Of a stretch of 64,000 nucleotides of DNA, positions 35,314 to 60,082 are shown one piece after another. Position 1 is the stretch's first letter. Every line of letters begins with the position of its first letter. This stretch comes from Elusimicrobiota bacterium (GTDB taxonomy: Bacteria; Elusimicrobiota; Elusimicrobia; UBA1565; UBA9628). A program made the translations under genes and the position numbers. The stretch covers positions 249 through 64,248 of the forward strand of contig JANRKA010000111.1 in NCBI GenBank assembly GCA_033875325.1, read 5' to 3'. Below the pieces are notes generated by a model. It saw only the letters and a program-made list of their open reading frames with translations, was not told where the DNA came from and searched no databases.

Positions 35314-35373
35314 GGGGGGGCCTCGGCGGGGGCGTAGTGGGGCTTCGACGGTAATTTTACTACATTGCGGCCG

Positions 35374-42918: not shown

Positions 42919-42956
42919 TTATTGAACATTCTACCCCCTACCGAGGGCAGGGTCAA
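42913..42956 (-). promoter_or_regulatory. Promoter TTGACC-17-TAGAAT plus candidate operator site S2 (GTTCA-TTTAT-TGAACAT, 42913-42929) overlapping the ABC gene ATG
   Basis: Minus strand: TTGACC 42956-42951, TAGAAT 42933-42928, then GTTCAATAA, then ATG 42918. Confidence 0.5.
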
Positions 42957-44791: not shown

Positions 44792-45682
44792 CTAGGCTTT
44801 CTGGAACAGCACGGTCATCATGTTCCCCCAGAACGCGGGGCTGCGGGCGACCTCGTCGCGGCGGCCTTGGCGGATGAGATCGGCGTCGCGCAGGACGGTC
44901 TCATGGTCCTTCGCTGGCGAAGCGTAAGGCGTTTCGAGGTAGGGATGCGCCTGGAAGACGAGCTTGAGCCCGACGGAGGCGCACAGGCGCGACAGGGTGT
45001 CCACGCTGAAGTAGTAGATGTGCTGGATGGGGTCGAATTGGTTCCACTTCTCCCGGTAGAGGTCGGCCGAGTAGCTCGACACGTCCGGCGTCGCCGTGAT
45101 GTAGAAGCGCCCGCCCGGGCGCAGCAGCTCGGCGACGCGTTTGACCGCGGCGCGGGGGTCGGGGAGATGCTCGATGACGCCGCGCATGGTGACGACGTCG
45201 AAGGAGGCCGGGGCGAAGCCGTCCTGGCCCAACTCGCGGTTCTGGATGCGCTCCGCCAAACGCGGGTTGCGTTCCCGCGCGAGGGCGACCGCCGCCGGGT
45301 CCTTCTCCAGGCCGTTCTTGGTGAAGCGGTCGGAGAGCTTTTCCAGGAAGAAGCCCGCGCTGCAGCCGACGTCGAGCAGGTCGCCGCGGTCGACGAACTG
45401 TTCCAGGTAGGCGCGGTCGATCTCGTACATGCGCCCGCGCTGCTCCATCTTCTTGGCGTCGCTGAGCCGGAACTTGATGTAGTCGGTGTAGTACAGGTTA
45501 AAGCCGGCCTCGGTGAGAAAGGGGTCCACCCAGACCAGGCCGCACGCGCGGCAGCGCACCGCGCGGAACACGCCGACTCGCGCCCACTCCTCCTTGTCGC
45601 CGCCCCCGCAGATGAGGCAGGGGCGCGGCTGGGCGAGGTGCTTCTCGAAAGGGGAGTAGTCCACGGTCTCGATGCGGATCAT
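44792..45682 (-). CDS. SAM-dependent methyltransferase with N-terminal Cys4 zinc-ribbon
   Basis: CLICGG...CRACG, motif I LLDVGCSAGFF. Confidence 0.8.
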   Translation of the reverse strand: MIRIETVDYSPFEKHLAQPRPCLICGGGDKEEWARVGVFRAVRCRACGLVWVDPFLTEAGFNLYYTDYIKFRLSDAKKMEQRGRMYEIDRAYLEQFVDRGDLLDVGCSAGFFLEKLSDRFTKNGLEKDPAAVALARERNPRLAERIQNRELGQDGFAPASFDVVTMRGVIEHLPDPRAAVKRVAELLRPGGRFYITATPDVSSYSADLYREKWNQFDPIQHIYYFSVDTLSRLCASVGLKLVFQAHPYLETPYASPAKDHETVLRDADLIRQGRRDEVARSPAFWGNMMTVLFQKA

Positions 45683-45722: not shown

Positions 45723-46394
45723 TCAGGCGGTTTTGCGCGCGTACCAGCGCTCGAAGCTGTTGTCCTTGAGGTATTGCGGGGCGAGCGTGGGTTTGTCTTT
45801 TTTGTCCGCGAAGTACTCGTCGATGGCCTTGCGCGCGCCGGGGTATTTGATGGAGTAGTACTCGTCGAAAATCATGACGCCGCCGACGGACAAGCGTGGC
45901 CACAACTCCCTAAGGCAGATCTGGTAGGACTCATAGAAGTCGCAGTCGAGGAACGCGAGCGAGAGGCGCGCCGGCGCCTTCGAGAGCGTGTCCTGGAACC
46001 AGCCGGGCACGACGTGCACGGGACCCTCGTAAGCGACCGCCTCGAGCTTGCGGCGCACGAGCTCGATGCTGGTGTCGCCGAAGTACCCCTGCGCGGCCTT
46101 CCGGTTCTGCGCGCCGTCCACGAGTTGGGTGTCCGCCTCCTTCGGGGCCGGCAGGCCTTGGAAGCTGTCGAACGCCCAAAGCCCTTTGCGGCTGCCCAGG
46201 GAGCGGAGCTTGGCCGCGATGGCGGCCAACGAGCTGCCGCGGAAGATGCCGCATTCGGCCACGTCGCCGGGGATTTCACGGGTCGTCTCGAGCATGTCCA
46301 AGACGATGGAGATGTTGCTGGGCTTGCGCGGGTTGGTGATCTCGCGCGACTCCCAGTCGCCGTCGGTCCAGGTCGTCAAGAGGTCCGTGGTCAT
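45723..46394 (-). CDS. TylF/MycF-family (macrocin-type) O-methyltransferase
   Basis: GDVAECGIFRGSS, FDSFQGLP, FLDCDFYES, VMIFDEY blocks. Confidence 0.75.
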   Translation of the reverse strand: MTTDLLTTWTDGDWESREITNPRKPSNISIVLDMLETTREIPGDVAECGIFRGSSLAAIAAKLRSLGSRKGLWAFDSFQGLPAPKEADTQLVDGAQNRKAAQGYFGDTSIELVRRKLEAVAYEGPVHVVPGWFQDTLSKAPARLSLAFLDCDFYESYQICLRELWPRLSVGGVMIFDEYYSIKYPGARKAIDEYFADKKDKPTLAPQYLKDNSFERWYARKTA

Positions 46395-47356
46395 CGGGCG
46401 CGTCGCTCCTTGAAAAAAGATACCAGTTTGCCCGCGGCGTGCGTGAAGGCCTTCTCCTGGCCATCGTAGGACATGCCGCCGCAGTGGGGCGTAATCATGA
46501 GATTGTCGTGGGCCCGGGCGTAGCGCACGAGCGGGTGGCGGCTCATGTCGCCCTCGATCTCGCCGTCGAGCACGTCCAGGCCCGCGGCGCGGACCCGTCC
46601 CGACTTCAGCGCCGCGAGCAGGGCGCGCTCATCGACGAGGCCGCCGCGGGAGGTGTTGACGAAGAAGACCCCCGGACGCATGCGCCGGAACCAGGAGGCG
46701 TCCACCATGCCGCGCGTCTCGGGCGTCAGGTGCACGTGCAAGGTGATGATCTCGCTGCGGCGCAGGAGCGCGTCGAGGCCCACCTGCTCCACCCAGCGGT
46801 CCTTGACCTTGACGAAGGGGTCGTGGGCCAGGACCTTCATGTCGAAGCCGCGGGCGAAGCGGGAGTACATGCTTCCCAGCCGGCCGTAGCCCACGATGCC
46901 CACGGTCCTCCCCTGCAGCTCGCGACCCCGGAAACGCGTGTAGTCCCACTCGCCTTTGCGCGCCGAGTCGAAGCTCCAGGGCATGTTGCGCGCGATGTTG
47001 AGCGTGAGGCCGAACGCGTGCTCGGCCGTCGAGGTGATGGTCTTGAGCAGGGCCATGTCCTTGGTGAGGGACATGACCGTGACCCCGCGCGCGGCGCACG
47101 CGGCCTTGTCGATGTGGTCCGTGCCGGTGGACGGCGTGCAGATGACGCGCAGGCGCGGCGCGGCGTCGAGCACCTCGCGGTCGAGCATCAGCTTGGTGTT
47201 GGGGAAGATGGCGTCGGCGTCCCGCGCGAGCCGCAGGGTCTCGCGGCGCGAAGGATGGTCGGTATAGACGACGCGCCCGGCGCTTTCCAAGAGCCGGCGG
47301 GTCTCGCGCAGATGGCTTACGGGGACGGTGACGAGGATCTTAGGCTTTCTGCGCAT
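46391..47356 (-). CDS. D-isomer-specific 2-hydroxyacid dehydrogenase (PGDH-like)
   Basis: GRTVGIVGYGRLGS NAD motif, catalytic-domain blocks, PHCGG. Start overlaps the upstream gene by 17 nt. Confidence 0.85.
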   Translation of the reverse strand: MRRKPKILVTVPVSHLRETRRLLESAGRVVYTDHPSRRETLRLARDADAIFPNTKLMLDREVLDAAPRLRVICTPSTGTDHIDKAACAARGVTVMSLTKDMALLKTITSTAEHAFGLTLNIARNMPWSFDSARKGEWDYTRFRGRELQGRTVGIVGYGRLGSMYSRFARGFDMKVLAHDPFVKVKDRWVEQVGLDALLRRSEIITLHVHLTPETRGMVDASWFRRMRPGVFFVNTSRGGLVDERALLAALKSGRVRAAGLDVLDGEIEGDMSRHPLVRYARAHDNLMITPHCGGMSYDGQEKAFTHAAGKLVSFFKERRAR

Positions 47357-49145
47357 GGGGCTCCGGGGGCGCCGCGCGCCGCAGTCGCTGTTCGGCGACG
47401 AACCAGTCCTCTTCCGAGTCGATGTTGACGCTGCGCTCCGGGGGGAAGTAGTAGGGCCTCGAATCGGCGGTGCCGTAGCGCTTGTCCTGGATCATCAGGA
47501 CGTCCCGGCGCATGGCGTAGATGGAGCCGTTGCGGATGAAGGCGTCCGGCTTGAGGTCCTGGCGCCGGGCGTCGAGGGGCTCGGGCACGCAGAAGTCGGT
47601 GATGCGGTCGTCCACGATGCGCTTGATGCGCGCCGGATGATGGTCGAAGAGCTGGACGACGCCGATCACCGAATCGGCGCCCGTGGAGAGGAGTTTGTCG
47701 AGGCAGCCGTCGATGTCCGCGGCGGTCTTCAACGGATTGGTGCACATCAGCTCCACGACGTAGTCGTAGGGCTTGCCCTCCTCCTTCTCGGCGAACGCGG
47801 TGGCGTGTTGGAGGCCGTCCTTGGAGGTCGCGGTGTCGGTCGCCAGGTGCGCGGGGCGCAGGAACGGGACCTCGGCGCCGTGCTGGCGCGCGACGGCGGC
47901 GATCTCCTCGCTCTCCGTCGAGACGATGAGACGCGTGATGCGCGGGCATTTGAGCGCCTCGCGGATGGTGTAGGCGATGGTCGGCAGGCCGTTGAGCGGC
48001 CGGATGTTCTTCTTGGGCACGCTTTTGGAGCCGCCGCGCGCCAGCACGATGGCCAGCACGCGCGGCGCGGCCGGGGTCCGGGGCGCGGGCGGGGCCTCGA
48101 GCATCGCGGGCTCGAGCAGCGCGTCGGCGGGAATGTCGGTCTTGGCCTTGCAGCCGACGACCTGATCCTTCTTCCAGGCCGGGATGCCGGTGCCGGGGTT
48201 CTTGAGCGTCAACATCTCGGCGGTGACGACCGTGCCGGCCTTGATGGCGGTCTTGGACACCCAGGAGACGTGGTATTTGTCGCGTGTGATCTGCTCGACG
48301 GGCAGCAGGCGCTTGACCCCGTCGCCGAGCATGATCTCGACGGCGCGGATGTCGGCCACGACCTGCTTGAGCTGGACCGGGTCGATGGAGAGTTTGTGGT
48401 CGAAGCCCATCATCTTGGTGTCGAGCGTGATGTGCCGCTCCACCACGCAGGCGCCGCGCGAGACGGCGGCGATGGTGGCCAAGGTCCCCACCTCGTGGCC
48501 GGAGTAGCCGACGGGCAGGGCGTAACGCTGGGCGAGCGCGTCCATCACGCGCAGGTTGGCGTGCTCGTAGGGCGTGGGGTAGGAGGACACGCAATGAAGC
48601 AGGATGAGAGGGCAGCCGGCCTTCTTGAAGACGTCGACGGCGCGGTCCACCTCCTCGGGCAGGGCCATGCCCGTGGAGAGGATGCACGGCTTCTTGCGCG
48701 CGGCCGCGTGCTCGAGGAAGGGCAGGTTGGTGAGGCTGTGGCTGGCGAGCTTGTAGGCCTCCATGCCCAGGTCCTCGAGGAACTCGAAGGACGGGACGTC
48801 GAACGGCGTGCAGAAGAAGGGCAGGCCCGCGGCGCGCGCGTGCGCGATGAGCTCCTGGAACTCGGCTTTGTCGAACTCCATGTGCTCGCGGATGGCGCGG
48901 TAGGTCGCGCCGAAGGCGGGAAAACGGGAGTCGGCGGCGTCGAGGACCGAGCCGACGGCCAGGTTGGCGACGTCGCGCTTCTGGAACTTCACCGCGTCGC
49001 AGCCGGCCGCCTTGGCGGCGTCGATGAGCTTCTTGGCGATGTCGAGCTCGCCGTTGTGGTTGAGTCCGATCTCGGCGATGACGAAGACGGGCTTGCCAGG
49101 GCCGATCTCGCGGCCGAGGAAGCGGACGGGGGCGATGGGGTTCAT
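47340..49145 (-). CDS. Fusion: NeuB-type nonulosonic acid synthase (N-terminal) + NeuA-type CMP-sugar cytidylyltransferase (C-terminal)
   Basis: IAEIGLNHNGELDIAKKLIDAAKAAGCDAVKFQ...SGHE...SAF-like domain. After a Pro/Ala linker, AIVLARGGSKSVPKKNIRPLNG. Confidence 0.85.
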   Translation of the reverse strand: MNPIAPVRFLGREIGPGKPVFVIAEIGLNHNGELDIAKKLIDAAKAAGCDAVKFQKRDVANLAVGSVLDAADSRFPAFGATYRAIREHMEFDKAEFQELIAHARAAGLPFFCTPFDVPSFEFLEDLGMEAYKLASHSLTNLPFLEHAAARKKPCILSTGMALPEEVDRAVDVFKKAGCPLILLHCVSSYPTPYEHANLRVMDALAQRYALPVGYSGHEVGTLATIAAVSRGACVVERHITLDTKMMGFDHKLSIDPVQLKQVVADIRAVEIMLGDGVKRLLPVEQITRDKYHVSWVSKTAIKAGTVVTAEMLTLKNPGTGIPAWKKDQVVGCKAKTDIPADALLEPAMLEAPPAPRTPAAPRVLAIVLARGGSKSVPKKNIRPLNGLPTIAYTIREALKCPRITRLIVSTESEEIAAVARQHGAEVPFLRPAHLATDTATSKDGLQHATAFAEKEEGKPYDYVVELMCTNPLKTAADIDGCLDKLLSTGADSVIGVVQLFDHHPARIKRIVDDRITDFCVPEPLDARRQDLKPDAFIRNGSIYAMRRDVLMIQDKRYGTADSRPYYFPPERSVNIDSEEDWFVAEQRLRRAAPPEPHAQKA

Positions 49146-50488
49146 GCGAACTCCTGGGGGCCCTTCTCGAGGGCGAGCTGGATGACGGCGAGGTCGAAGG
49201 GGTCGTTGGCCTTCATGGCGTAAAGCTTGTTGTCCAGCGGGGCGAGCGCGACGTTGGCGCCCAAGAGCTGGCCTTGGCGCACGAACTCGCAGCTCGAGAC
49301 GGTGCCCAGTCCCGTGAGGCCGCGCTGCATGGGCTTCTTGAGCTCGTGGGGATGGAAGCCCGTGTCGCTGCGCACGATGCGGCCCTCGGTCTCGTTCCAA
49401 GAGGCCACGTAGTCCGGCAAAGTCGGCACCAGGCTGTCGGCCCCGCTTTGCGCGAACCGGCCGGCCAGGTCTTGGAAGAAGCGCTCGGGTCGGAACGGGA
49501 ACAGGTAATTGACGTAGAGCACGGCGTCGAAGTGCTCGTCTCCCTCTTCGGCCTTCTGCAGGGCGTGGCGCAGGACCTGCTCGATGCCGACCTCCGGGCG
49601 CAGCAGCTCGGGCGGACGCCCCAGCGCAAGCGCGCCGAGCCGGCGAGCGGTCTCCAGCGCGTCCGGGTGCTCCGCGATGACGGCGACCTTGCGGGCGACC
49701 TTGGAGGCGAGGACCTCGCGCAGGCAGCGCTCGAGCAGGTCGCGGCCCGCGACGGTCTTGACCGGGCCGAGCACGGGCAGGATGGCGAGCAAGTCGAGGT
49801 CGTTGGCGGGCGTCGTGGCCGCATCGCTCTCCGAGAGCGACTCGAGGATGCGCACCACGTTGCGGGCGCGTTCGGGGTCCCCGTCCTGGTGGATGCCGTG
49901 GTAGTGGTACACCGCGGCCTCGGGCTCGTAGACGAGCTTGAAGCCCTTCTCGATGACGGCCTTGCCCCAGATGCGGTCCTCGATGTTGGTGGCTTCGGCG
50001 TCGAAGGGGATCTGCTCCCAGACGGCGCGGCGCAGCAGGCTGTTGGCGTTGTGGAAGAAGGTGTCCTTGACCTGGATGCGGCGATCGAGCCCGAAGATGT
50101 TGAGCAGGTCGCGTTTGTCCTGAGGCGTGCTGTAGGCCATGGGCAGCTGGCGGCCGTAGACGCCGGCGACCTCCGGGTTCTCCATGTTGGCCAGGAGGCG
50201 GCTGAGCCAGTCCGCGCGCTGAGGGATGCAATGCGCCGAGACGCAGACGATGAACTCGCCGCTGGAGGCGCGGATGCCGGCGTTGAGCGCGTCGCCGGGC
50301 CGGTAGCGGTCGATGGTGACGAGCTTCACCGGGTATTTCTTGGCCACGGCCACGGTGTGGTCGGTGCTGCGGTTGTCCACCAGGATGACCTCGAAATCCT
50401 TGAAGTCCTGCTGGTAGATCATCCGCAGGCAGCGGCCGACCCAGCGTTCCTCGTTTTTGGTGCGGACGATGATGGAGATCTTGGGCAT
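49142..50488 (-). CDS. Fusion: GT2 glycosyltransferase (N-terminal) + degenerate cytidylyltransferase-like domain (C-terminal)
   Basis: ISIIVRTKNEE, VDNRSTDHT, ED motif region. The C-terminal half is AILPVLGPVKTVAGRDLL... with the NeuA-like fold pattern but without the RGGSKG loop. Confidence 0.65.
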   Translation of the reverse strand: MPKISIIVRTKNEERWVGRCLRMIYQQDFKDFEVILVDNRSTDHTVAVAKKYPVKLVTIDRYRPGDALNAGIRASSGEFIVCVSAHCIPQRADWLSRLLANMENPEVAGVYGRQLPMAYSTPQDKRDLLNIFGLDRRIQVKDTFFHNANSLLRRAVWEQIPFDAEATNIEDRIWGKAVIEKGFKLVYEPEAAVYHYHGIHQDGDPERARNVVRILESLSESDAATTPANDLDLLAILPVLGPVKTVAGRDLLERCLREVLASKVARKVAVIAEHPDALETARRLGALALGRPPELLRPEVGIEQVLRHALQKAEEGDEHFDAVLYVNYLFPFRPERFFQDLAGRFAQSGADSLVPTLPDYVASWNETEGRIVRSDTGFHPHELKKPMQRGLTGLGTVSSCEFVRQGQLLGANVALAPLDNKLYAMKANDPFDLAVIQLALEKGPQEFA

Positions 50489-50493
50489 GGTCC

Positions 50494-51324
50494 TCAGCGA
50501 GTGTACTTCTTCAAGAGCCCGGCTTCCTCGCCGAGGTCGAGGCCTTTGACCTCGGAGGGCTCCGGCGGCAGGACGGACGGGAAGACGGTGAAGTTGAGCG
50601 CCTCGCGGAAGCCCCGTGCCGGGTCCCAGGCGCGGTGCACGGCGTTGTTCTCGAAGACGATGACCGTGCCGGGTTCGCCCAGGGCGTGGACGAGCTCGAA
50701 TCGCTCCTTTACCCAGGCGTCCTCGTAGCGGTCGCCGACCTTGCCGAGCTCCGGCTTGAAGCCCTTCTGCGAGCCCTTGGCCACGGTCAGCGGGCCGTCC
50801 TCGAGCCCGCGCACGGGCGTGAGGTAGGTCATCACCTTGAGGCTGCCCGTCGGGTAGTTGTCGCGGTGCCAGGCGTAGCTTCCCTGCACGGCCGGCACGG
50901 GCTGGTTGCGGTAGCAGTAGATGTCGCGGGCCCGCCAGCGTGCGCCGTAGAAGGCGCGCAACACGGGGTCGAGCGCCTCGCCGAACACGCGGTACAAGTC
51001 GAACTTCCGCTGGTAGTTCTTCACGTGGAGGAAGTAATAGCGCTCCACCTCGGCGCGCGTCGCGCCGGCCGCCTCGAGGAGCTGCTTGCCGTCCGGGCTG
51101 AAGACGAGTTCCTCGCGATGGTCGAAGTCGAACCACTCCGCATTGGCCGCCCGGATGCGCGCCACCGTCGCGGCGTCGAGCAGGCCCGGCAGGACGACCA
51201 GGCCGTCTTCGGCGAGACGCGCGGCGCGAGCGTCCGGGGCGGGCGTCTGCGCCGTCAGCAGGCGCGCCAGGCGCGCGCGGGAGGCGTAGACGGCCTCGAC
51301 GGCCCGTCCGAGGAAGTCGCTCAC
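50494..51324 (-). CDS. PhyH-like Fe(II)/2-oxoglutarate dioxygenase
   Basis: GTG 51324 in a GTGA overlap. WHRD (HxD) and distal NNAVHRAW His. Confidence 0.65.
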   Translation of the reverse strand: MSDFLGRAVEAVYASRARLARLLTAQTPAPDARAARLAEDGLVVLPGLLDAATVARIRAANAEWFDFDHREELVFSPDGKQLLEAAGATRAEVERYYFLHVKNYQRKFDLYRVFGEALDPVLRAFYGARWRARDIYCYRNQPVPAVQGSYAWHRDNYPTGSLKVMTYLTPVRGLEDGPLTVAKGSQKGFKPELGKVGDRYEDAWVKERFELVHALGEPGTVIVFENNAVHRAWDPARGFREALNFTVFPSVLPPEPSEVKGLDLGEEAGLLKKYTR

Positions 51325-52772
51325 GCGGCTCTCCCTTCGTCGAGGGCGTTGACGAACTCCGCGACGCGGCGCTGCGCGAGGCCGTCGAAGTATGCGTGCC
51401 GCTCGCGTGCCACGGCGGGAGGCTCGGGCAGGTCCAGCTCCAGCAGTTCGAACACGCGCCGCTCGTAGCGGCCATAATCGGCGGTCTCGTCGGTCAACTG
51501 GAAGCGCTCGTCGGCGCTGTAGTTCTCGTAGGGGTTGCCCGCGTAGTTGACGAACAAGGCCTTGAGACCGCGGCGCAGGAAGAAGGCCTCGTAGCCCAAG
51601 GTCGAGTTGAAGGTGACGGCCAGCCGCGACTTGTAGAGGCTGGCGTAGCTGTCGCCGTTCTTCTCGTTGGGCAGAATCTCGACGCCGTCGGTGAGCAGGC
51701 GCGCGAGCACCGCGCGCGTGTCGCGGCCCGGGATGGAGCCCGCGCCGTAGCCGCGCAGTTGGTAGGCCACGCGCAGATGCGGGTTGCGCTTCTTGAGCTC
51801 GTTGAGGTTGCGCATCATCGTCTCGAAGGAGAGCGCCGTCTTCAAGTCCAGGCCGCAGTGCGGGTAGACGCCCTGGTCGATCATCAAGACGTCCCAGGTG
51901 ACGGGCTCCCCGGCGCGTTCGAGGGCGCGCACGCGTTCGTAGTGCTCGTTGAGGCACAGCGCCCCGACCGCGTGATGGCGTCCGACGCGCATGCGCAGCG
52001 GCCCGGCCATGGTTTTGGCGAAGTCGCCGAAGGTGAGGTAAGCGTCCATGGCGCTGTAGGCGTAGAAGGGATGCAGGCCGCGCTCGCCGTTCTGGATGAC
52101 GACCAAGGAACCCGAGCAGTTGTGCTTGAAGGCCAGCCAGCGGCAGGGGTGGTTGAGCTCGTCGGCGTAGGTGACGAAGTGGCGGCAAGGCCAGCGACGG
52201 AAATGGCCTTCGTAGACGGCGTAGGTGCCCAAGCAGCGGCGGTAGGACTTGAGCAGGTTCAGACCATAGCGGCGCGAGAGCGCCCACAGCGCCGGGATGA
52301 ACAGCGGGGCGGCGAGCAGCCAGGGCAGCGCGCGCGGCGAGATGGTGCCCTCGACCGGGCCGGTCGAAGGGTAGCCGTCGAAGTCGCCGCGCGGCGCGAC
52401 GCGTTTGCTCCCGTCGAAACCCGCGAAGGACTCCGCGAACCACTTCTCGAAGTAAGCGCGGTCGATGGTCTCGATCTGCGTCCGCACGGGCGCCTCGCGC
52501 CGCCACAGCCAGGTTTTCCTGAGCGCGTAGAAGAAGGGATGCAGCAACGAGTCCAGCGCCACGCGGGAGAGTTTCTCCGCCTGGTAGTTCACCTGCGGCT
52601 GGGCGTCGCAGAACATCTTCTTCATGACGAGCTCGAGCTCGTCCTCGCTCGCCCGGAGATAGGCGCGCAGGAAGCGGAACGCCGCGTCGCCTTTATGCGC
52701 CGCGGCGAAGGCCTCGGCCCTCGGGATGAAGGCGAGCGCGGGGTTGGCGGCGGCGGTCGCGGTCGCGCTCAT
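51321..52772 (-). CDS. Uncharacterised 483-aa protein, putative transferase (Rossmann-like C-terminal half)
   Basis: ATGA overlap on both sides. One hydrophobic segment. C-terminal pattern RLAVTFNSTLGYEAFFLRRGLKALFV resembles that of the 612-aa protein at 42953-44791. Confidence 0.5.
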   Translation of the reverse strand: MSATATAAANPALAFIPRAEAFAAAHKGDAAFRFLRAYLRASEDELELVMKKMFCDAQPQVNYQAEKLSRVALDSLLHPFFYALRKTWLWRREAPVRTQIETIDRAYFEKWFAESFAGFDGSKRVAPRGDFDGYPSTGPVEGTISPRALPWLLAAPLFIPALWALSRRYGLNLLKSYRRCLGTYAVYEGHFRRWPCRHFVTYADELNHPCRWLAFKHNCSGSLVVIQNGERGLHPFYAYSAMDAYLTFGDFAKTMAGPLRMRVGRHHAVGALCLNEHYERVRALERAGEPVTWDVLMIDQGVYPHCGLDLKTALSFETMMRNLNELKKRNPHLRVAYQLRGYGAGSIPGRDTRAVLARLLTDGVEILPNEKNGDSYASLYKSRLAVTFNSTLGYEAFFLRRGLKALFVNYAGNPYENYSADERFQLTDETADYGRYERRVFELLELDLPEPPAVARERHAYFDGLAQRRVAEFVNALDEGRAA

Positions 52773-53845
52773 TGTTTCCCGAAGTGCGCGGTGTAGTCGC
52801 TCGTGGCTCGCTCGTGGTCGGAAAGCCGCCCCACGTCGAGCCAGTATTCCTGAAGGGGGAAACAGGCGATGCTCTTGGCGCGGCGAGCGCGCAGGCGCGC
52901 GAGCAGCTCGGGCATGTCGCAGCGACGGTCTTTGGGCAGGGCTTTGAGCGCCGCGGGCTCGAGCGCGTAGATGCCCGCGTTGACGAAGCAGCGCTGCACC
53001 GGCTTCTCGACGAAGCGTTCGAGCTTGTTGTCCGCCAGCTCGATGACGCCGTAGGGGATCTGCACCTCGTGCTGCTTGATGCAGAGGGTCGCCAGGGCCT
53101 TCTCGCTCTTGTGGAAGTCGAGCAAAGCGCGGAAGTCCACCTTGGTCATGATGTCGCCGTTGACCACGAAGAATGTGTCCTCGAGGTCGCGTTTGATGAG
53201 GCCCAGCGCGCCGGCCGTGCCCAGCGGCTTGGTCTCGTGGACGTACTCGAAGCGGGCGTCCCAACGCTCGCCGTCGCCGAAGTGGTCCTTGATCTGGTTG
53301 GCGAGGTAGTTGACCGAGAAGATGAAGCGGTGGAAGCCCGCGGCGACGAGTTGGTCGATGAGGATCTCCATGATGGGCTTGCCGCCCACCTTGACCAGGG
53401 GCTTGGGGGTGTTGGCGGTCAGCGGCAGCAGGCGCTTGCCCGCGCCGCCGGCCATGATGACCACCCAGTTGGGGTGGCGCGTGGGGATGGTGACATGGTC
53501 GAGCAGCGCGGCCAGATCTTTGAGGACGCCGGCGCGATCCACGACGGGGATGTAGGCGTGCGAGGTGCGGCGGAAGGCCTCGGAAAGCGTCTCGCGCGAG
53601 GAACCCTCGGGCACGGTCACGGGCTTCTTATTCATCGCCCCGCTGACGGGCGCCTCGAGCGGGCGTTTGCTCAGCAGGGCGCGGCGGATGTCGATGTCGG
53701 TGACCACGCCGAGCAGCCGGCGGCGGCCGTCCACCACCAAGGCGATGCCCAGTCCGGTCTTGGTCATGGCCGCCACGGCGTCGCGCAGGCGCGCGCCGGG
53801 CTTGAGCAGGATGGCGGGGTGTTTCTTCAGCAGGTTCGCGGGCAT
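52769..53845 (-). CDS. CBS-pair + sugar-1-phosphate nucleotidyltransferase (PtmE-like)
   Basis: CBS-like N-terminus (ALVVDGRRRLLGVVTDIDIRR), then VIMAGGAGKRLLPLTANTPKPLVKVGGKPIME. Confidence 0.8.
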   Translation of the reverse strand: MPANLLKKHPAILLKPGARLRDAVAAMTKTGLGIALVVDGRRRLLGVVTDIDIRRALLSKRPLEAPVSGAMNKKPVTVPEGSSRETLSEAFRRTSHAYIPVVDRAGVLKDLAALLDHVTIPTRHPNWVVIMAGGAGKRLLPLTANTPKPLVKVGGKPIMEILIDQLVAAGFHRFIFSVNYLANQIKDHFGDGERWDARFEYVHETKPLGTAGALGLIKRDLEDTFFVVNGDIMTKVDFRALLDFHKSEKALATLCIKQHEVQIPYGVIELADNKLERFVEKPVQRCFVNAGIYALEPAALKALPKDRRCDMPELLARLRARRAKSIACFPLQEYWLDVGRLSDHERATSDYTAHFGKQ

Positions 53846-53846
53846 G

Positions 53847-54473
53847 TCAGGACTCCTTCGCGGGGACGCCCACGGCGGTGACACCGGGGCGGACGTCGCG
53901 CGTCGCGACCGCGCCGGCCCCGAGTCGCGCGCCTTCGCCCACGGTCACGCCGGGCAGGACCACGGCGCCGGCGCCGATGAAGGCGCGCGCGCCGATCCGC
54001 GCGCCGCCGCACACCACCGCGCCGGGGCTCACGAAGGCGTGGGCGCCGACGACGGCGTCGTGTTCGATGACGGCCGCGGTGTTGACCACCGCGTTCTCGC
54101 CGACGACCGCGCGCGGGTGGACCACGGCGCGCGTGAGCACCTGGCAGCCCGCGCCCAACGAGGCGGAGGGCGCGACCACGGCGGAGGCGGCGACGACGGG
54201 CGGGAATCGGAAGCCGCGCTCGCGCCATGTCTCGAAGAGGCGGCGGCGCGGGCCGGTGTCGCCGGTCGTGCCCAGGCCGTTGACGAGGCGTGTGGCGGAG
54301 GGCTCGAGTTCCGCCAGGAACTCGTCGCCGCCGAGCACCTTCAGGCCTTCGACCGTCGTGCCGCGCCGTTGGGGGTTCGCGTCCGTGAAACCCGCGACGC
54401 GGGTCTTGGCGGCGCGCAGCGTCTCGGCGAGCACGACGGCGTGCCCGCCCGCGGCGAGGATGACGGTCTTCAT
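53847..54473 (-). CDS. NeuD/PglD-family sugar N-acetyltransferase (left-handed beta-helix)
   Basis: N-terminal Rossmann-like MKTVILAAGGHA, then hexapeptide repeats. GGAGG SD 6 nt upstream. ATGA overlap. Confidence 0.85.
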   Translation of the reverse strand: MKTVILAAGGHAVVLAETLRAAKTRVAGFTDANPQRRGTTVEGLKVLGGDEFLAELEPSATRLVNGLGTTGDTGPRRRLFETWRERGFRFPPVVAASAVVAPSASLGAGCQVLTRAVVHPRAVVGENAVVNTAAVIEHDAVVGAHAFVSPGAVVCGGARIGARAFIGAGAVVLPGVTVGEGARLGAGAVATRDVRPGVTAVGVPAKES

Positions 54474-55606
54474 GCGCGGCCTCCGTGGAAGGTCTTGCGG
54501 GGCGCCGCGGCCAGGTCCGCGGTCGCCAGGACGGCGGCGATGCGTTCGGCGACCGCCCCGCCGCGGTAGGGGCTGCGGCCCTTGAGGCGGGAGCGGAAAG
54601 AGGGAGAGAGGACGCGGCGCAAAGCCGCGGACACGGCGGCGGCCGACGGCGCGCAATCCACGACCGAGGGGGCCTTCAGGCGCCCGTCCTGGCGCGCGCC
54701 GGCGTTGACCGTGGGCACGCGCAGCAGAGGCGCCTCGATGACCCCGCTCGACGAGTTCCCGACGCAGGCGGCGGCGCGACGCAGCAGGCTCAGCCAGCCG
54801 CGGGCTCCGAGCGAGGCGTGGACGCGGTAACGGCGCGGGTCGCGGGACGCGAAAGCTTTCAGGCGCGCGTTGACCGCGCGCCCGCCCGCGTCCGCGCCGG
54901 CGAAGGTGAACACGGCGCGGCGGCCGCTCGCCGCGACGGCTGACAGGATGCCGTCGAGTTCGCCCAGGGGGTTCTTCCCGCAGGGGTGGTAGGTCACCAC
55001 CAGCGGCGGCGGAGTCAGGGGCAGACCCACGAGTTTGGACAACTCGGCGTCAGGGAGCGGCTTGAGCCCCGCGGCGTTCTCCAGGCCCGGCGCCCCGGAG
55101 AGGAACACGCGCCGCGGGTCCTCTCCCATGGCGATCACGCGCCGGCGGTAAGGCTCGGCCGCGACGAAGTGCAGGTAGGAGAGCTTGGTCAGGGCGTGGC
55201 GCACCTGCTCGTCGATGACGCCTTCGCTGGCCTCGCCGCCGTGCAGGTGCGCGATGGGGATCTTCAGCGCCACGGCCGCGGTCGCGGGCGCGAGCAGCTC
55301 GTAGCGGTCGCCGAGCAGGACGAGGAGGTCGGGCCTCAGGCGCGCGAACGCGGCGGCGAAGGATCCCACGGCGCGTCCGACCGCCTTGGCCTGGGACGCG
55401 GCATCGTCGCCGGCGGGCATGGGGATGCGCGCGGCGATGGGAAGCCGGATGGCGCGTTCGGTACGACCGAACGCGCGACTAAGATGCGAGCCGGAGACCA
55501 CGAGCTGCAGGCGCAGGCCGCGGCGGGCCGCGATGGCGCGGGCCACGGGCTCGAGCAGCCCGTACTCCGCGCGCGAGGTGGTGACGACGCAGACCTTGCG
55601 GCTCAG
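54470..55606 (-). CDS. Hydrolysing NDP-N-acetylhexosamine 2-epimerase (NeuC/LegG-like); probable CTG start
   Basis: KVCVVTTSRAEYGLL, IAHLHGGE. No ATG/GTG/TTG in the 25 in-frame codons upstream. CTG 55606 sits in a CTGA overlap with GGGAGG (55619-55614) 7 nt upstream. Confidence 0.75.
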   Translation of the reverse strand: MSRKVCVVTTSRAEYGLLEPVARAIAARRGLRLQLVVSGSHLSRAFGRTERAIRLPIAARIPMPAGDDAASQAKAVGRAVGSFAAAFARLRPDLLVLLGDRYELLAPATAAVALKIPIAHLHGGEASEGVIDEQVRHALTKLSYLHFVAAEPYRRRVIAMGEDPRRVFLSGAPGLENAAGLKPLPDAELSKLVGLPLTPPPLVVTYHPCGKNPLGELDGILSAVAASGRRAVFTFAGADAGGRAVNARLKAFASRDPRRYRVHASLGARGWLSLLRRAAACVGNSSSGVIEAPLLRVPTVNAGARQDGRLKAPSVVDCAPSAAAVSAALRRVLSPSFRSRLKGRSPYRGGAVAERIAAVLATADLAAAPRKTFHGGRA

Positions 55607-57315
55607 GCGAGGGCCTCCCAGGTCAAGGTCTCGTCGGCCGCGACGGCCTTCTTCAGGCGACGGCCGGGCAGGCGCTCCAACTCGGCCGGCGCGATGCCGT
55701 CGCCCGGGCGCTTGAGCGCGAGGTCGGCCGCGGCGAGCGTGTGGCCCGCGGGCAGGTCGCGCGCGGCGACGACAGAGCGCCGGGCCACGGTGCGGTTGGC
55801 GGCCTCGCAGGGCGCGGCGCGCTTGATCCCGTCGCCGAGCGCGGCGGTCACGGCGCGCACGGCTTTGACCAGCGCCGCGAACTCGGCGGGGTCGAGCGAC
55901 GCCGCCTGGTCCGGGCCGGGCAGCGCCTTGTCGAGCGTGAGGTGCTTCTCGATGACGGCCGCGCCGCGCGCGGCGGCCGCGACCGACACCTCGATGCCGG
56001 GCGTGTGGTCGGAGTAGCCCACCGGCAGGCCGAAGTGCTCGCGCAAGGTGTCCATGGCGAGCAAGTTCACCTGCTCGACGGGCGCGGGGTATTCGGTGAG
56101 GCAATGCAGCAAGGTCAGCGGGGCGGAGGAGACCTCGCGCGCCCAACGCACGGCGTCGGCGACCTCGGAGAGGGTGCTCATGCCGGTGGAGACGATGAGG
56201 GGCTTGCCTTTGGACGCGACGTGTCGGATGAGGGGCTTGTTGGTGATTTCGCCGGAGGGCACTTTGAGCAAGGGCACGCCGAGCCCGTCGAGCAGGTCGG
56301 CGCTGTCGGCGTCGAAGGGGGTCGAGAGGAAGGTGATGCCGATGCTCCGGCAGTAGGCCGCGAGTTCGCGATGCGCGGCGTCGGAGAGCTGCAGGCCCTT
56401 GATCATGTCGAGCTGGCTCTGCTCGCCGCCCGTGGTCTTCTTCTGGTACTCGGCCTTGGCCGCGCGGCGCGAGACCAGGCCTTCGGCTTTGAACGACTGG
56501 TATTTGACCGCGTCGGCGCCGCAGGCTTTCGCGGCGTCGGCGAGTTTCTTGGCCGAAGCGAGGTCGCCGTTGTGGTTCACGCCGGCCTCGGCGATCACGA
56601 ATACGCGAGAAGGCGGGGTCTGCGCCCGCGCGCGTTCGGCCTGGAGACCGGAGACGACCGCCCAATCATAGGGCGTGTCCACGTCCGCGGCTTCCTCGGA
56701 CGACACGACGATGGCCCGGCGCGGTTGCGCATGGAAGGTCTTGGTCTTGCGAAGCGTGTCCACGGAGACCATGAACACGGAACCGTCGAGCGCGTAGGCT
56801 TCAGGCAATTGCTGGCGCGGCGCGGGCGTGCCGAGACCGTCGATGAAGGAGGTCAAACGCCCGTCTTTCTCGACGAGGTAGCACCAATGCGGATGGAAGC
56901 GGGACGGGGTCACGGAGACGACGGACTCGCCGGTCGACCGAAAGAGCTCCACGGCTTTGAGGATGGTCTGGGCGGAGCGGAACGGCGAAGTCGGCTGGAG
57001 CACCAGCACGGCGTCCGGCTTGTAGCCCTCGTCTTGGGCGAGCTTGTCGAGCAGATGCAGCGTCGCGTCCACGAGGGCCGAGCCGTCCTGCGCCAATTCC
57101 GGCGGACGCAGCCACGGCACCTTCACGCCGTATTCTTCGGCGACGGCCGCGATGGCCGCGTCGTCGGTGGAGACCCACAGTCGGTCGCAGACCCCGGCCT
57201 CGCGCGCGGACAGGATGGCCCGGCCCAGCAGGGGCACGCCGCCCAGCGGCTTGATGTTCTTGCCGGGTACCCCCTTGGAGCCGCCGCGCGCCGGGATGAG
57301 GCCGAGGATCTTCAC
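55603..57315 (-). CDS. Fusion: NeuA-type cytidylyltransferase (N-terminal) + NeuB-type nonulosonic acid synthase (C-terminal)
   Basis: GTG start. LGLIPARGGSKGVPGKNIKPLGG..., then IAEAGVNHNGDLASAKKLADAAKACGADAVKYQ...SDHT...SAF-like end. Confidence 0.85.
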   Translation of the reverse strand: MKILGLIPARGGSKGVPGKNIKPLGGVPLLGRAILSAREAGVCDRLWVSTDDAAIAAVAEEYGVKVPWLRPPELAQDGSALVDATLHLLDKLAQDEGYKPDAVLVLQPTSPFRSAQTILKAVELFRSTGESVVSVTPSRFHPHWCYLVEKDGRLTSFIDGLGTPAPRQQLPEAYALDGSVFMVSVDTLRKTKTFHAQPRRAIVVSSEEAADVDTPYDWAVVSGLQAERARAQTPPSRVFVIAEAGVNHNGDLASAKKLADAAKACGADAVKYQSFKAEGLVSRRAAKAEYQKKTTGGEQSQLDMIKGLQLSDAAHRELAAYCRSIGITFLSTPFDADSADLLDGLGVPLLKVPSGEITNKPLIRHVASKGKPLIVSTGMSTLSEVADAVRWAREVSSAPLTLLHCLTEYPAPVEQVNLLAMDTLREHFGLPVGYSDHTPGIEVSVAAAARGAAVIEKHLTLDKALPGPDQAASLDPAEFAALVKAVRAVTAALGDGIKRAAPCEAANRTVARRSVVAARDLPAGHTLAAADLALKRPGDGIAPAELERLPGRRLKKAVAADETLTWEALA

Positions 57316-57322
57316 GGGTCGG

Positions 57323-58555
57323 TCAGGAGACCCGGTGCTTGAGCTTCCATTCGCCGTTATGGCGCTCCCATAGATGGGGGGAGCGGAACTTGTCCACCGT
57401 GGCGTGGAACTCCTTCTCGTCCATGCCGAGGTACTCGAGGATCTCCTTGTAGTACTTCTTGGGGAACTCGCCGTCGAAGCGGTGCACGAGCGCGACGGCC
57501 TCCTCGCGGTCGATGTGGCCGGAGCGGACCTCCTGGGCGGCGTCGTAGGTGGCGCGGCCGATGCCGTATTTCACGTAGGTCGTCCAGTAATGGAAGCCGT
57601 CGATGCGGTCGTCGAGGCTGTTGTACTTGGAGTAGGTGCCCTCGGTGCGCTCGGGGTTGGCCTCGAAGCCGGTGTGCTCGACGGCGTAGTAGTAGCTCTC
57701 CTGCGGGATCCACTTGATGTAGTAGCCGAGGTAGTGCACCTTCACGCCCAGTTCCTCGAGCTGCGCGTCGTCGGCGGGCAGGTAGGGCTGCAGGTCGGCG
57801 GGCTCGAGCTTGTGTTTCTCGATGAGCTCGGTCAGCGACACGCCGCCCAGGTGGATCTTGTCCTTGCTGGCCTTGGTGAAGTAGTTCTTGGCGCGAAGAG
57901 GGCTCTTGTTGTCGGAGATGGGGTTGCCGTATTCGGCCTCGTTCTCGCCGAAGAACACGAGCGGCACCTTGTGGCGCAGCGCCATGTGCGGGGCGAGCGT
58001 CTTCTGCCCGATCATGAAGGGCTGGAAGGGGTTGAGCAGGTTCTGCACGGCCAGGCGGGTCAGCAGGCGGTGGACCTTTCCGTTGGGGGTGAAGAGGCTG
58101 TTGTCGCAGCCCCCGACGTGGATCCAGTTCTGGAAGTTCTTCCAGCCGATCTCGGTGTAGAGGTGCGGCGCCCAGGTGATGGTCAGCGGGTGCATGCCGT
58201 ACTTGTATTTGAGGACGTGCGAGGCGCGGGCGCTGTCCTTGCCGCCGGAGCCGGGCACGATGCAGTCGTAGGAGCCGTCGTGCCGGCGGTACTGGTCGCA
58301 GAGGTCCTTGAGCTCCTTCTCGCGCTGCTTCCAATCGATGACGTCGCGTTTGACCTCGGCGAAGCGGCAGGCGTCGCACACGCCTTCCTCGTCGATGCGG
58401 ATGGTCTCCTTCTTCGACTCCGCGGTGTGGTAGTACTCCACGCAGGAATTGGGGCGCTGGTTGGAGATGACGCAGCGTTTGCAGAACTTGACCTCGGCGG
58501 GGAGGCCGAAAAGGGCCTCGGCCTTGCGGGTCTTGGCGGCGGCGGGGTTGGTCAT
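57323..58555 (-). CDS. N-acetyl sugar amidotransferase (WbuX/PseA-like PP-loop enzyme)
   Basis: Zn-ribbon CKRC...CDAC; PP-loop VPGSGGKDS. ATGA overlap with the hisH-like gene. Confidence 0.85.
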   Translation of the reverse strand: MTNPAAAKTRKAEALFGLPAEVKFCKRCVISNQRPNSCVEYYHTAESKKETIRIDEEGVCDACRFAEVKRDVIDWKQREKELKDLCDQYRRHDGSYDCIVPGSGGKDSARASHVLKYKYGMHPLTITWAPHLYTEIGWKNFQNWIHVGGCDNSLFTPNGKVHRLLTRLAVQNLLNPFQPFMIGQKTLAPHMALRHKVPLVFFGENEAEYGNPISDNKSPLRAKNYFTKASKDKIHLGGVSLTELIEKHKLEPADLQPYLPADDAQLEELGVKVHYLGYYIKWIPQESYYYAVEHTGFEANPERTEGTYSKYNSLDDRIDGFHYWTTYVKYGIGRATYDAAQEVRSGHIDREEAVALVHRFDGEFPKKYYKEILEYLGMDEKEFHATVDKFRSPHLWERHNGEWKLKHRVS

Positions 58556-59187
58556 GGGTTCTCCAGGAAGCGTCTGAGTATGTCGAGTCCGGCGGGCCCG
58601 CTCTTCTCGGGGTGGAACTGGCAGCCGGTGATGTTGCCCCGGCGCAGGGCGGCGCAGAAGGAGCCGGCGCCGTAGCCGCAGTCGGCGAGGCGGTCGGCTT
58701 TCTCGGCGGGCACGGCGGCGTAAGAATGCACGAAATAGAACTCCGCTCCCTCCGCGGTGCCGGCCAGCGCGGTCTTCGGCCACGGCGAGGCCGGAGAGAG
58801 CGCGCTCCAGCCCACGTGCGGCAGCTTCACGCCGTCGGTGCCCGCGACCAGCTTCTCCACGGAGCCGGGCACCAGGCCCAGGCCCTCGTGCTCGCCGAAT
58901 TCGGAGCTGCGGTCCATGAGCAACTGCATGCCCAGGCAGATGCCCAGCAGCGGGCGCCCGGACTTGGCGTAGGCGCGCAGCGGCTCGACCAAGCCCCGCT
59001 CGCGCAGCCCCTTCATGCCGTCGCCGAAGGCGCCCACGCCGGGCAGGAGCACCCGCGGCGCGCCCACCACGTCGGCGGGGTCGGCGGAGATGTCCGGCTC
59101 GCCGCCGACGGCGCGCACGGCGCGGGCCACGCTGAGCAGGTTGCCCAGGCCGTAGTCCACGATGACGACGCGTTTGGAGCCGCTCAT
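58552..59187 (-). CDS. HisH-like glutamine amidotransferase subunit (WbuY-type)
   Basis: GVGAFG, GICLGMQLL (Cys nucleophile), HSY, QFHPEKS. Confidence 0.9.
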   Translation of the reverse strand: MSGSKRVVIVDYGLGNLLSVARAVRAVGGEPDISADPADVVGAPRVLLPGVGAFGDGMKGLRERGLVEPLRAYAKSGRPLLGICLGMQLLMDRSSEFGEHEGLGLVPGSVEKLVAGTDGVKLPHVGWSALSPASPWPKTALAGTAEGAEFYFVHSYAAVPAEKADRLADCGYGAGSFCAALRRGNITGCQFHPEKSGPAGLDILRRFLENP

Positions 59188-59972
59188 GCGAGGGGGGCGG
59201 CCGCCGGCGGGCGACGCACGGGGACGCCGGCCGACAGCAGCGTCTCCTTGAGCTCGCGCAGGCCGCATTTCTTGAAATGCAGGATGGAGGCGACCGACAC
59301 CGCGTCGGCGCGGCCTTCCTGCACCGCCGCCAGCACGTGTTCGGCCTTGCCCGCCCCGCCGCAGGCGATGACGGGGATGGAGACCGCGGTGGCGAGCTTG
59401 GCGGTCAGCTCCAGGTCGAAGCCCTTGAGCGTGCCCTCCTTGTCCACGGAGGTGACCAGGATCTCGCCCGCGCCCAGGTCGGCGGCCTTGCGCGCCCACT
59501 CGTAGGCGTCCACCCCGGTCTTCTCGCGCCCGTTGTCGGTGAGCGCCTCCCAGCGTCCGGGGCCCTGGGACTTGGCCTCGATGGAGACCACGATGCACTG
59601 GGAGCCGAAGCTGCGGGCGGCCTCGCGGATGAATTCGGGGTTGGCGATGGCGGCGGTGTTGACCGCGACCTTGTCGGCGCCGGCGCGCAGCAGCTTGTAC
59701 ACGTCGTCGAGCTTGCGCACGCCCCCGCCCACCGTCAGCGGGATGAAGATGTCGGCCGCGGCGCGCTCCACGATGTCGAGCAGGTTGTTGCGCCCGTAGA
59801 GGCTGGCCACGATGTCCATGTAGAGCAGTTCATCGGCGCCTTCTTCGTAGTAGCGCCGGGCGTGCTCCGCGGGGTCGCCCACGATGCGCAGCCCCTCCAG
59901 GTGGACCCCCTTCACGATGTTGGGGCCCTTGATGTCCAGGCGGGGGATGATGCGGATGTTGGTCCGGGACAT
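59184..59972 (-). CDS. HisF-like cyclase subunit (WbuZ-type)
   Basis: RIIPRLDIKG, TVGGGV, VAVNTAA, ACGGAG. ATG 59972 chosen; GTG 59978 is an alternative start. Confidence 0.9.
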   Translation of the reverse strand: MSRTNIRIIPRLDIKGPNIVKGVHLEGLRIVGDPAEHARRYYEEGADELLYMDIVASLYGRNNLLDIVERAAADIFIPLTVGGGVRKLDDVYKLLRAGADKVAVNTAAIANPEFIREAARSFGSQCIVVSIEAKSQGPGRWEALTDNGREKTGVDAYEWARKAADLGAGEILVTSVDKEGTLKGFDLELTAKLATAVSIPVIACGGAGKAEHVLAAVQEGRADAVSVASILHFKKCGLRELKETLLSAGVPVRRPPAAAPLA

Positions 59973-60017
59973 GTTCACTTATTGAACATCTTATCAAGTG
60001 GGGGGAGAAGGAGTCAA
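59973..60017 (-). promoter_or_regulatory. Promoter TTGACT-18-TGaTAAGAT plus candidate operator site S3 (GTTCA-CTTAT-TGAACAT, 59973-59989)
   Basis: Minus strand: TTGACT 60017-60012, TAAGAT 59993-59988, then GTTCAATAA, then GTG 59978 / ATG 59972. Confidence 0.5.
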
Positions 60018-60031: not shown

Positions 60032-60082
60032 TTGACGGGGCCGGTACGATTTCCATATACTGTCCGTTCAGAGATTGAACAT
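60032..60082 (+). promoter_or_regulatory. Promoter TTGACG-18-TATACT plus candidate operator site S4 (GTTCA-GAGAT-TGAACAT, 60066-60082) overlapping ATG 60081
   Basis: TTGACG 60032-60037, TATACT 60056-60061. The inverted repeat covers the expected transcription start and the start codon. Confidence 0.5.

Follow-up and report, generated by a model that had tools for sequence, protein, structure and literature searches.

Why does a single operon of an Elusimicrobiota bacterium encode two enzymes that each join a NeuB-type sugar acid synthase to a NeuA-type cytidine monophosphate (CMP)-transferase, with the two domains in opposite order, and do the two act on one sugar or on two? The locus lies on contig JANRKA010000111.1 (assembly GCA_033875325.1), in a stretch of 64,000 nucleotides with a G+C content of ~70% that was analyzed as a whole (the window). 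Fusion A (47340..49145, minus strand) is built as NeuB-SAF-linker-NeuA and fusion B (55603..57315, minus strand) as NeuA-linker-NeuB-SAF. We favor, at a probability of roughly 0.68, the reading that the operon carries two separate pairs of ulosonic acid synthase and CMP-transferase, of which B would be of the legionaminic type and A would serve a second, distinct sugar acid.

Anatomy and integrity of the two fusions

Both genes lie in the same tightly coupled minus-strand run at a distance of 6,458 bp, and Pfam domains and coordinates bear out an earlier, sequence-only reading of this locus (the original prediction), which had described two opposite-order NeuB/NeuA fusions ~6.5 kb apart on the same strand of one operon. 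Fusion A is 601 amino acids long, and its ATG start overlaps the stop codon of the upstream gene, which encodes a family 2 glycosyltransferase (GT2) fusion. Its Pfam domains NeuB (residues 40-278, E = 1.6e-78), SAF (294-350), and CTP_transf_3 (365-548, E = 1.4e-20) make up a synthase with SAF domain (residues 1-345), a Pro/Ala-rich linker (346-362, roughly positions 48060-48110), and a CMP-transferase (363-600). In fusion B, of 570 amino acids, the order is CTP_transf_3 (residues 5-130, E = 1.7e-20), NeuB (260-498, E = 7.6e-97), and SAF (512-569); the alignment to NeuA of the Protein Data Bank (PDB) spans residues 4-219, giving a NeuA/LegF-like part (1-222), a linker (223-237, roughly positions 56605-56649), and a NeuB/LegI-like part with SAF domain (238-569). 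The synthase and cytidylyltransferase motifs quoted in the original prediction are present in both proteins, as GLNHNG...AVKFQK and LARGGSKS in A and as GVNHNG...AVKYQS and PARGGSKG in B. An AlphaFold model of fusion A, built on a 52-sequence alignment, reached a mean predicted local distance difference test score of 92.5 and fell below 50 just at linker residues 354-358 and in the C-terminal tail. Foldseek aligned its halves to Neisseria meningitidis NeuB with a template modeling score of 0.90, to the NeuA of that species (PDB 1EYR) with 0.86-0.87, and to the CMP-N-acetylneuraminic acid (Neu5Ac) synthetase of Vibrio cholerae with 0.90-0.91, so the folds are alike, whereas in N. meningitidis the two enzymes are separate proteins.

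Several lines of evidence show that neither fusion was created by sequencing or assembly. A plot of G+C at third codon positions (GC3) showed an uninterrupted coding phase through each gene, including both junctions. Fusion A is intact at 66-94% identity in independent assemblies from NCBI, ENA, JGI, and Logan (L003-L007, P0002-P0008), among which the linker varies in sequence but always keeps the frame, and more than 100 protein clusters contain an unbroken fusion B. In comparison with L006, the closest relative, dN/dS was 0.17 for NeuB and 0.12 for NeuA of fusion A, and 0.14 for NeuA and 0.12 for NeuB of fusion B, ratios which indicate that all four domains are under purifying selection. Replication and selection together ruled out the assembly-artefact and pseudogene readings. 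That such errors do occur in this clade is evident from CP096137.1 (L001), whose NeuA-B region is scrambled in part and whose gene calls nearby are fragmented, yet given the recurrence of both fusions, the continuous phase at both junctions, and linkers that vary in frame, we regard an assembly or frameshift artefact behind either fusion as hardly credible, and the original prediction, which had named this as one possible refutation, stands on this point.

CP096137.1 (L001/L008), a complete Elusimicrobiota genome, deserves separate mention. Its apparently unfused NeuB-B was considered as a natural split and rejected: the fusion B frame is open throughout (1835-3538) and thus across the junction, ~60 NeuA residues are scrambled, and the neighboring genes are fragmented, which suggests frameshift errors or decay in this region.

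Residue signatures of the A-type subfamily and its module

The two fusions are not recent copies of each other. Their NeuB domains share 40% and their NeuA domains 33% identity, they fall in different clades of neighbor-joining (NJ) trees, and their pocket signatures differ, in agreement with the earlier claim that they are independent. Numbered after N. meningitidis NeuB (NmNeuB; PDB 1XUU/1XUZ) and NeuA (NmNeuA; PDB 1EYR), both synthases keep the phosphoenolpyruvate (PEP)/catalytic residues Glu25, Lys53, Gln55, Lys129, Ser132, Ser154, Tyr186, Ser213, Glu234, and Asp247 as well as the metal ligands His215 and His236, and both transferases keep Arg12, Ser15, Lys16, and Lys21 of the P-loop, Arg165-Gln166 of the dimerization domain, Thr106, and Asp211. 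In PDB alignments, fusion B retains every canonical NmNeuB and NmNeuA residue, among them Glu134 and Arg314 of the synthase and Gln104, Asp209, and Asp211 of the transferase. Fusion A, in contrast, carries Glu134Ser, Asp214Gly, and Arg314Asn (in the motif KNPGTG) in its synthase and Gln104Met and Asp209Asn in its transferase. Glu134, Arg314 (contributed by the SAF domain), and Gln104 are residues which we take to contact the sugar; Arg314 is presumably essential in NmNeuB, and Asp209 is presumably one of two Asp metal ligands of NmNeuA, together with Asp211. The statement that both fusions keep their catalytic blocks therefore holds for the motifs and for the PEP, metal, and P-loop residues shared with the N. 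meningitidis enzymes, with Asp209 as the exception in A, but it does not extend to Arg314, Glu134, Gln104, and Asp209, all of which are replaced in fusion A.

Replacements of this kind, in the synthase and the transferase alike, could mark fusion A as a decayed or non-catalytic paralogue, the more so as the NeuA-A domain is gone entirely from two relatives (L008 and L009). We consider this very unlikely. The Ser134/Gly214/Asn314 signature is fixed across the A-type clade, which holds 96 of 381 NeuB domains, and 118 of 122 stand-alone NeuA-A homologues (60-73% identity) carry Met104/Asn209, their sources being Elusimicrobia, Magnetococcales, Vicinamibacterales, Gallionellales, and Methanoregula; because the changes are subfamily-wide and span several phyla, they do not look like decay. 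Moreover, the PEP, metal, and P-loop residues are all intact, dN/dS is 0.12-0.17 for both domains, the predicted model is of high confidence, and some loci, L012 among them, contain no synthase or CMP-transferase other than the A-type genes. By these sequence comparisons, the A pair is a distinct, widespread, and uncharacterized subfamily pair, and NeuB-A is an outlier to the NCBIfam family TIGR03569, against which fusion A scored 330.0 bits (cut-off, 399.65). It also remained below the cut-offs of the PseI model TIGR03586 (242.8 versus 340.25 bits) and the PseF model TIGR03584 (140.2 versus 205.7 bits).

The loss of Arg314 is shared with a second group of enzymes. NeuB proteins fused to phosphatase-type domains (AP_endonuc_2 or HAD) likewise have no Arg314, with Gly or Ser at position 214, and all 30 sequences without Arg314 clustered together in the NJ tree, with a bootstrap of 68% (52% with 6NCS included), while the extended A clade reached 90%. 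This grouping hints that the A-type substrate might be a phosphorylated or non-acetamido aldose, but the A module has no phosphatase, and Pfam detected neither a HAD nor an AP_endonuc_2 domain in fusion A or in any other gene of the operon. A paper on Kdn offered no residue-level rule on substrate choice. In metagenomes, NeuB has many partners besides: the fusions P0240, P0266, P0286, P0308, P0341, P0344, P0359, and P0377 join it to methyltransferase, GT2, AP_endonuc_2, NeuC epimerase, HAD-NeuA, radical SAM, HAD, and formyltransferase domains.

NeuB-A and NeuA-A are part of a conserved four-gene module. Their genes share contigs (13 pairs of matches with equal-sized longest contigs), a GT2 fusion protein of ~450 amino acids lies directly 5' of NeuB-A in every locus examined (it adjoins NeuB-A in L002-L005, L010, L012, and the P0008 contig), and a D-2-hydroxyacid dehydrogenase usually follows 3' of the pair (in the window, L003, L004/L005, L010, L012, and the P0008 contig). 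In the window, these flanking genes are a GT2 glycosyltransferase with a degenerate NeuA/MobA-like domain (49142..50488, minus strand, by Pfam) and a phosphoglycerate-dehydrogenase-like D-2-hydroxyacid dehydrogenase (46391..47356, minus strand; Pfam, with 221 bits to TIGR01327, under its cut-off). The C-terminal domain of the GT2 protein (49145-49813, minus strand) matched NTP_transf_3 with 33.7 bits in the whole protein and, taken by itself, with 23.1 bits (cut-off, 27); it is weakly NeuA-like, reads VLGPVKTVAGRD where ARGGSKxxPxKN is expected, and lacks the Arg/Lys P-loop. Judged by this motif it is probably not an active cytidylyltransferase, and its role may instead lie in docking or in the binding of nucleotide sugars; many lineages conserve it beside A-type NeuB. 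Searched against the PDB, the GT2 fusion matched only generic GT2 enzymes, in its N-terminal half. The earlier count of four cytidylyltransferase-family domains within 13 kb thus comes down to three CTP_transf_3 domains (in the two fusions and an SpsF-like gene) and one marginal NTP_transf_3 match. Literature searches found nothing relevant on 2-hydroxyacid dehydrogenases in nonulosonic acid (NulO) clusters or on nonulosonic acids in Elusimicrobia.

The module also occurs on its own. In L003, L012, and the P0008 contig it has neither legionaminic acid (Leg) genes nor a hydrolyzing epimerase nearby, and in L012 a polysialyltransferase-family gene follows it. This bears on the possibility that A and B handle a single legionaminic-type sugar or closely related N-acyl forms, as redundant or specialized isozymes. 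Such a division of labor would fit the fact that at least four lineages (the window, L004/L005, L006, and L007) have A and B in the same operon, the single hydrolyzing 2-epimerase (LegG) of the operon, and the name "CMP-N,N'-diacetyllegionaminic acid synthase" that JGI gives to some NeuA-A homologues. It is at odds with the occurrence of the A module away from Leg genes, with the low identity of A and B in both domains, with the systematic differences at sugar-contact residues, and with the failure of A-type NeuB at the TIGR03569 cut-off that B passes, and we judge it unlikely. A product of its own for fusion A is made likely by the combination of intact PEP, metal, and P-loop residues, subfamily-wide changes at sugar contacts, and a module that is sometimes found without Leg genes.

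Fusion B and the two proposed pathways

For fusion B, the sequence family and the neighboring genes point in the same direction. It scored 449.3 bits against TIGR03569 (cut-off, 399.65) and stayed below the cut-offs of PseI (TIGR03586, 279.8 versus 340.25 bits) and PseF (TIGR03584, 131.7 versus 205.7 bits). Immediately downstream, on the minus strand as are all genes of this group, lie a LegG/NeuC-type hydrolyzing 2-epimerase (54470..55612; TIGR03568, 326 bits versus a cut-off of 235.9), a LegH/NeuD/PglD-family N-acetyltransferase (53847..54473; TIGR03570, 211.8 versus 160.8 bits, with Pfam PglD_N and Hexapep domains), and a PtmE-like sugar-1-phosphate nucleotidyltransferase (52769..53845; two CBS domains and an NTP_transferase domain in Pfam), so that the LegG and LegH adjoining the synthase both exceed their NCBIfam cut-offs. 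Upstream are a WbuX-type N-acetyl-sugar amidotransferase (57323-58555; Pfam and TIGR03573, 383 bits versus a cut-off of 203) and HisH-like (58552-59187) and HisF/WbuZ-like (59184-59978) genes assigned by family matches, which together (57323..59978) form a predicted acetamidino-forming module. With legG, legH, the ptmE-like gene, and wbuX/hisH/hisF around it, fusion B can most likely be assigned as LegF-LegI, acting on a sugar of the legionaminic acid type.

The start of legG is itself unusual. Its conserved N-terminal motif KVCVVTTSRAEYGLL (55546-55612, minus strand) precedes the first ATG, GTG, or TTG; in L006, a GTG start codon overlaps the fusion B stop (GTGA), and the window has CTG at that place (CTGA). 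A CTG start overlapping the fusion B stop is likely from this comparison, perhaps with coupled reinitiation, the alternative being an N-terminal truncation.

The same genes could be read as a NeuC/NeuB/NeuA/NeuD set making Neu5Ac, and the NCBIfam models NeuB_NnaB, NeuC_NnaA, and NeuD_NnaD all scored above their cut-offs, whereas the LegB and LegC models did not. The candidates for the latter two functions are located in the divergent plus-strand operon: a DegT aminotransferase (61759-62925; Pfam, with 206.4 bits to LegC versus a cut-off of 420) and a short-chain dehydrogenase/reductase 4,6-dehydratase-like gene (62844-63968; 91.7 bits to LegB versus a cut-off of 475). Yet the PtmE-like CBS-nucleotidyltransferase adjoins legH, a DegT aminotransferase lies within the operon itself in the relatives L004 and L010, WbuX/HisH/HisF acetamidino genes are present, the JGI orthology (KO) names of homologues are mostly legionaminate synthase, and the gene order agrees with the Leg cluster of Leptospira. 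Acetamidino genes of the WbuX/HisH/HisF type are typical of diamino nonulosonic acids. A Neu5Ac product of the fusion B pathway hence appears improbable, somewhat more so than a sugar common to both fusions, and we retain the legionaminic-type reading for B.

The legionaminic pathway of Campylobacter jejuni and Leptospira (PtmE, LegB, LegC, LegH, LegG, LegI, and LegF) provides the closest template: PtmE-like, LegH, LegG, TIGR03569 synthase, and NeuA-type genes are all in the window, whose neighborhood resembles the Leptospira Leg cluster. It differs in that LegF and LegI are one polypeptide, that the LegB and LegC candidates are divergent and under cut-off, and that an acetamidino module is attached. 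The route that we propose is as follows. LegG would release a hexose, which fusion B would condense with PEP before activating the product with cytidine triphosphate, probably yielding a 5,7-diamino sugar of the legionaminic acid type that would also receive an acetamidino group through WbuX/HisH/HisF. Fusion A would most likely make and CMP-activate a second, different 2-keto-3-deoxy sugar acid. Each fusion would supply the enzymes of consecutive steps in 1:1 stoichiometry and in proximity. NeuB and NeuA are each homodimers in solved structures, and by analogy either fusion could assemble into dimers or higher-order complexes. That two sugars are each made and activated in parallel, as first proposed, is the best reading of the clades and pockets, but the original prediction overstates the case in taking the second product to be a nine-carbon sugar and in calling the steps "channelled," for which the evidence is their physical linkage.

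Several observations weigh against the two-pair reading. (i) Fusion A is without Arg314 and, of the two Asp metal ligands of NmNeuA, keeps only one. (ii) The NJ trees are distance-based, and the bootstrap of the core A clade is moderate. (iii) L008 and L009 keep NeuB-A but are without NeuA-A, so that some lineages can evidently do without the fused transferase or replace it. (iv) The LegB-like and LegC-like genes are under their NCBIfam cut-offs and located in a divergent operon, and B could therefore serve a Neu5Ac-type or other Leg-like pathway. Beyond the two-pair reading, we raise a more speculative proposal, which we hold to be possible but doubtful: the four-part A module might make and activate an undescribed CMP-linked ulosonic acid, starting from an aldose that is phosphorylated or has no acetamido group and following a path separate from the Neu, Leg, and Pse routes, and might do so in a wide range of bacteria and archaea from the environment (Elusimicrobiota, Magnetococcales, Vicinamibacterales, Gallionellales, and Methanoregula), with the fusion in Elusimicrobiota as its natural bifunctional enzyme.

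Origin of the opposite domain orders and place in the operon

The two domain orders differ greatly in frequency. In a census of 504 fetched homologues, the NeuA-NeuB order of fusion B is common (177 proteins) and spread over many phyla, archaea included, whereas the NeuB-NeuA order of fusion A is limited to eight closely related 90%-identity clusters (P0001-P0008). Among 1.84 billion representatives at 50% identity, P0005 was the only one collinear with fusion A over its full length. Five further matches covering ~55% of the query (P0034 and others) were considered as order-A fusions and rejected, being order-B proteins aligned over their NeuB half only. The same order occurs elsewhere in the unrelated P0317 (NeuB-SAF-CTP_transf_3) and P0282 (NeuB-NeuB-SAF-CTP_transf_3), where it arose independently. 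The nearest relatives carrying fusion A are uncultured Elusimicrobiota known from metagenome-assembled genomes, CBDIQC010000001.1 (94%) and JAKFCD010000080.1 (91%).

Fusion B is ordinary by comparison, being old, widespread, and among the commonest NeuB architectures in metagenomes. Its best 120 homologues are almost all full-length at 45-89% identity and come from Elusimicrobiota, Omnitrophica, Gemmatimonadales, Thermoanaerobaculia, and one Thermoplasmata archaeon, many of them named N,N'-diacetyllegionaminate synthase by JGI. Public NeuA-NeuB fusions of ~570-600 amino acids, annotated as "N-acetylneuraminate synthase" or "N,N'-diacetyllegionaminate synthase," show no difference of kind from it.

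The origin of fusion A can be read from L010, an Elusimicrobiota relative at a greater distance (70% identity), in which the same operon carries neuB-A and neuA-A unfused: neuB-A (348 amino acids) is followed by neuA-A (238 amino acids) after 11 nucleotides and in a different frame, in the order of the fusion A domains. Since the unfused genes already stand in this order, the domain order of fusion A mirrors gene order, and fusion A is a young read-through fusion of the neighboring genes neuB-A and neuA-A. The swapped order that had been singled out as noteworthy thereby loses its interest: the opposite orders copy the gene orders at the time of fusing, and a functional explanation is therefore unneeded. 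Fused and unfused proteins are intermixed in the NJ tree. In L008 and L009 (86-89% identity in NeuB-A), a stand-alone NeuB-A is followed by a convergent gene and the NeuA-A domain is absent, a pattern from which we conclude that fusion A was lost, or never formed, in some sublineages. Downstream of the unfused NeuB-A, CP096137.1 also has a NeuA-like remnant of 46% identity on the opposite strand (12885-13427).

Both fusions belong to what gene arrangement identifies as a cell-surface glycan operon, a predicted transcription unit of ~17 kb reading from 59978 to 42953 on the minus strand. From 39.4 to 60.0 kb, the GC3 frame plot shows a single unbroken series of minus-strand genes, mostly joined by 4-nucleotide overlaps or separated by a few bases. 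The continuous phase, the overlaps, and the presence of just two sigma-70-like promoters on this strand support one operon; the predicted first promoter (TTGACT-18-TAAGAT, 59988..60017, minus strand) is directly 5' of the first gene of the run, and a promoter of the ATGTTCAATAA type divides the 20-kb run into two transcription units. This 11-mer has three identical minus-strand copies in the window (59979-59989, 42919-42929, and 31479-31489; chance expectation, 0.02), each overlapping the -10 box of a sigma-70-like promoter (TAAGAT, TAGAAT, and TATGAT) and ending 0-8 nucleotides 5' of a start codon, and two of the three genes open with [A/G]TGAAC. The arrangement points to transcripts with no leader or a very short one, produced from a common promoter design.

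The remaining genes of the operon are also on the minus strand. Separating the Leg genes from the A module are a gene for a conserved 483-amino-acid protein (51321-52772), which had no Pfam or NCBIfam family even at E<=1, and a PhyH-family Fe/2-oxoglutarate dioxygenase gene (50494-51324, by Pfam), both in a position that is kept in L001, L004/L005, and L010. Downstream of the dehydrogenase follow a TylF-type O-methyltransferase (45723-46394) and a class I methyltransferase (44792-45682), both assigned by Pfam, and a 612-amino-acid LIC12162-family transferase (42953-44791), for which Pfam gave nothing and NCBIfam only a partial LIC12162 match (TIGR04331). The 483- and 612-amino-acid proteins hold fixed positions across the operons of relatives and are candidates for the missing ulosonic acid transferases. 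The divergent plus-strand operon contains, besides the LegC- and LegB-like genes, the SpsF-like CTP_transf_3 gene (60075-60752) and a GFO/IDH/MocA oxidoreductase (ending at 61762), both assigned by Pfam. At the end of the second minus-strand unit lies a glucose-1-phosphate cytidylyltransferase (39472-40239; TIGR02623, 424 bits versus a cut-off of 300), and the cluster therefore also includes a CDP-hexose branch. Farther along the minus strand, the glycan region has two B12-binding radical SAM genes (33406-35373 and 26137-28041) and an initiating sugar transferase of the Bac_transf family (24651-26141). A 1,914-amino-acid open reading frame (14367-20111, minus strand) with a third-position GC of 0.96 and no Pfam match could code for a large surface protein, which the glycan machinery might modify.

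That one cluster can hold several NulO pathways, and that NulO enzymes can be fused to pathway neighbors, is already known from Leptospira, where two synthases, one of them fused, and two CMP-synthetases occur together in the NulO cluster (Ricaldi et al. 2012, PMC3438082). The Leptospira interrogans fusion resembles fusion A in adding a second NulO synthase and CMP-synthetase to a Leg cluster, with the synthase as a fusion, and Leptospira-type, NeuB-AP_endonuc_2, and NeuB-HAD synthases share with the A type a Gly or Ser at position 214 and the lack of Arg314, and they group with it in the NJ tree. The partner in Leptospira is a phosphatase-type domain, unlike the CMP-transferase of fusion A, the A module has no phosphatase gene, and support for the joint clade is 52-68%. 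Literature searches found no paper describing the NeuA-NeuB architecture and nothing on natural NeuA/NeuB fusions beyond this Leptospira precedent of a different NeuB fusion; a paper on Tannerella describes NulO-modifying enzymes as poorly known.

Nonulosonic acids coat many bacteria and archaea, and their environmental diversity is poorly charted. The present locus leaves the understanding of these enzyme families unchanged, and the opposite domain order adds no new principle. Fusion B illustrates that a LegF-LegI enzyme in one polypeptide is the common solution in many uncultured lineages, and it could be a handy catalyst for CMP-legionaminic-type donors. As an architecture, fusion A is rare and belongs to an uncharacterized subfamily, and the main lead it offers is the product of the A module rather than the swapped order: as a "Rosetta stone," it links an uncharacterized synthase subfamily to an uncharacterized CMP-transferase subfamily and flags a module that probably makes an unknown sugar acid.

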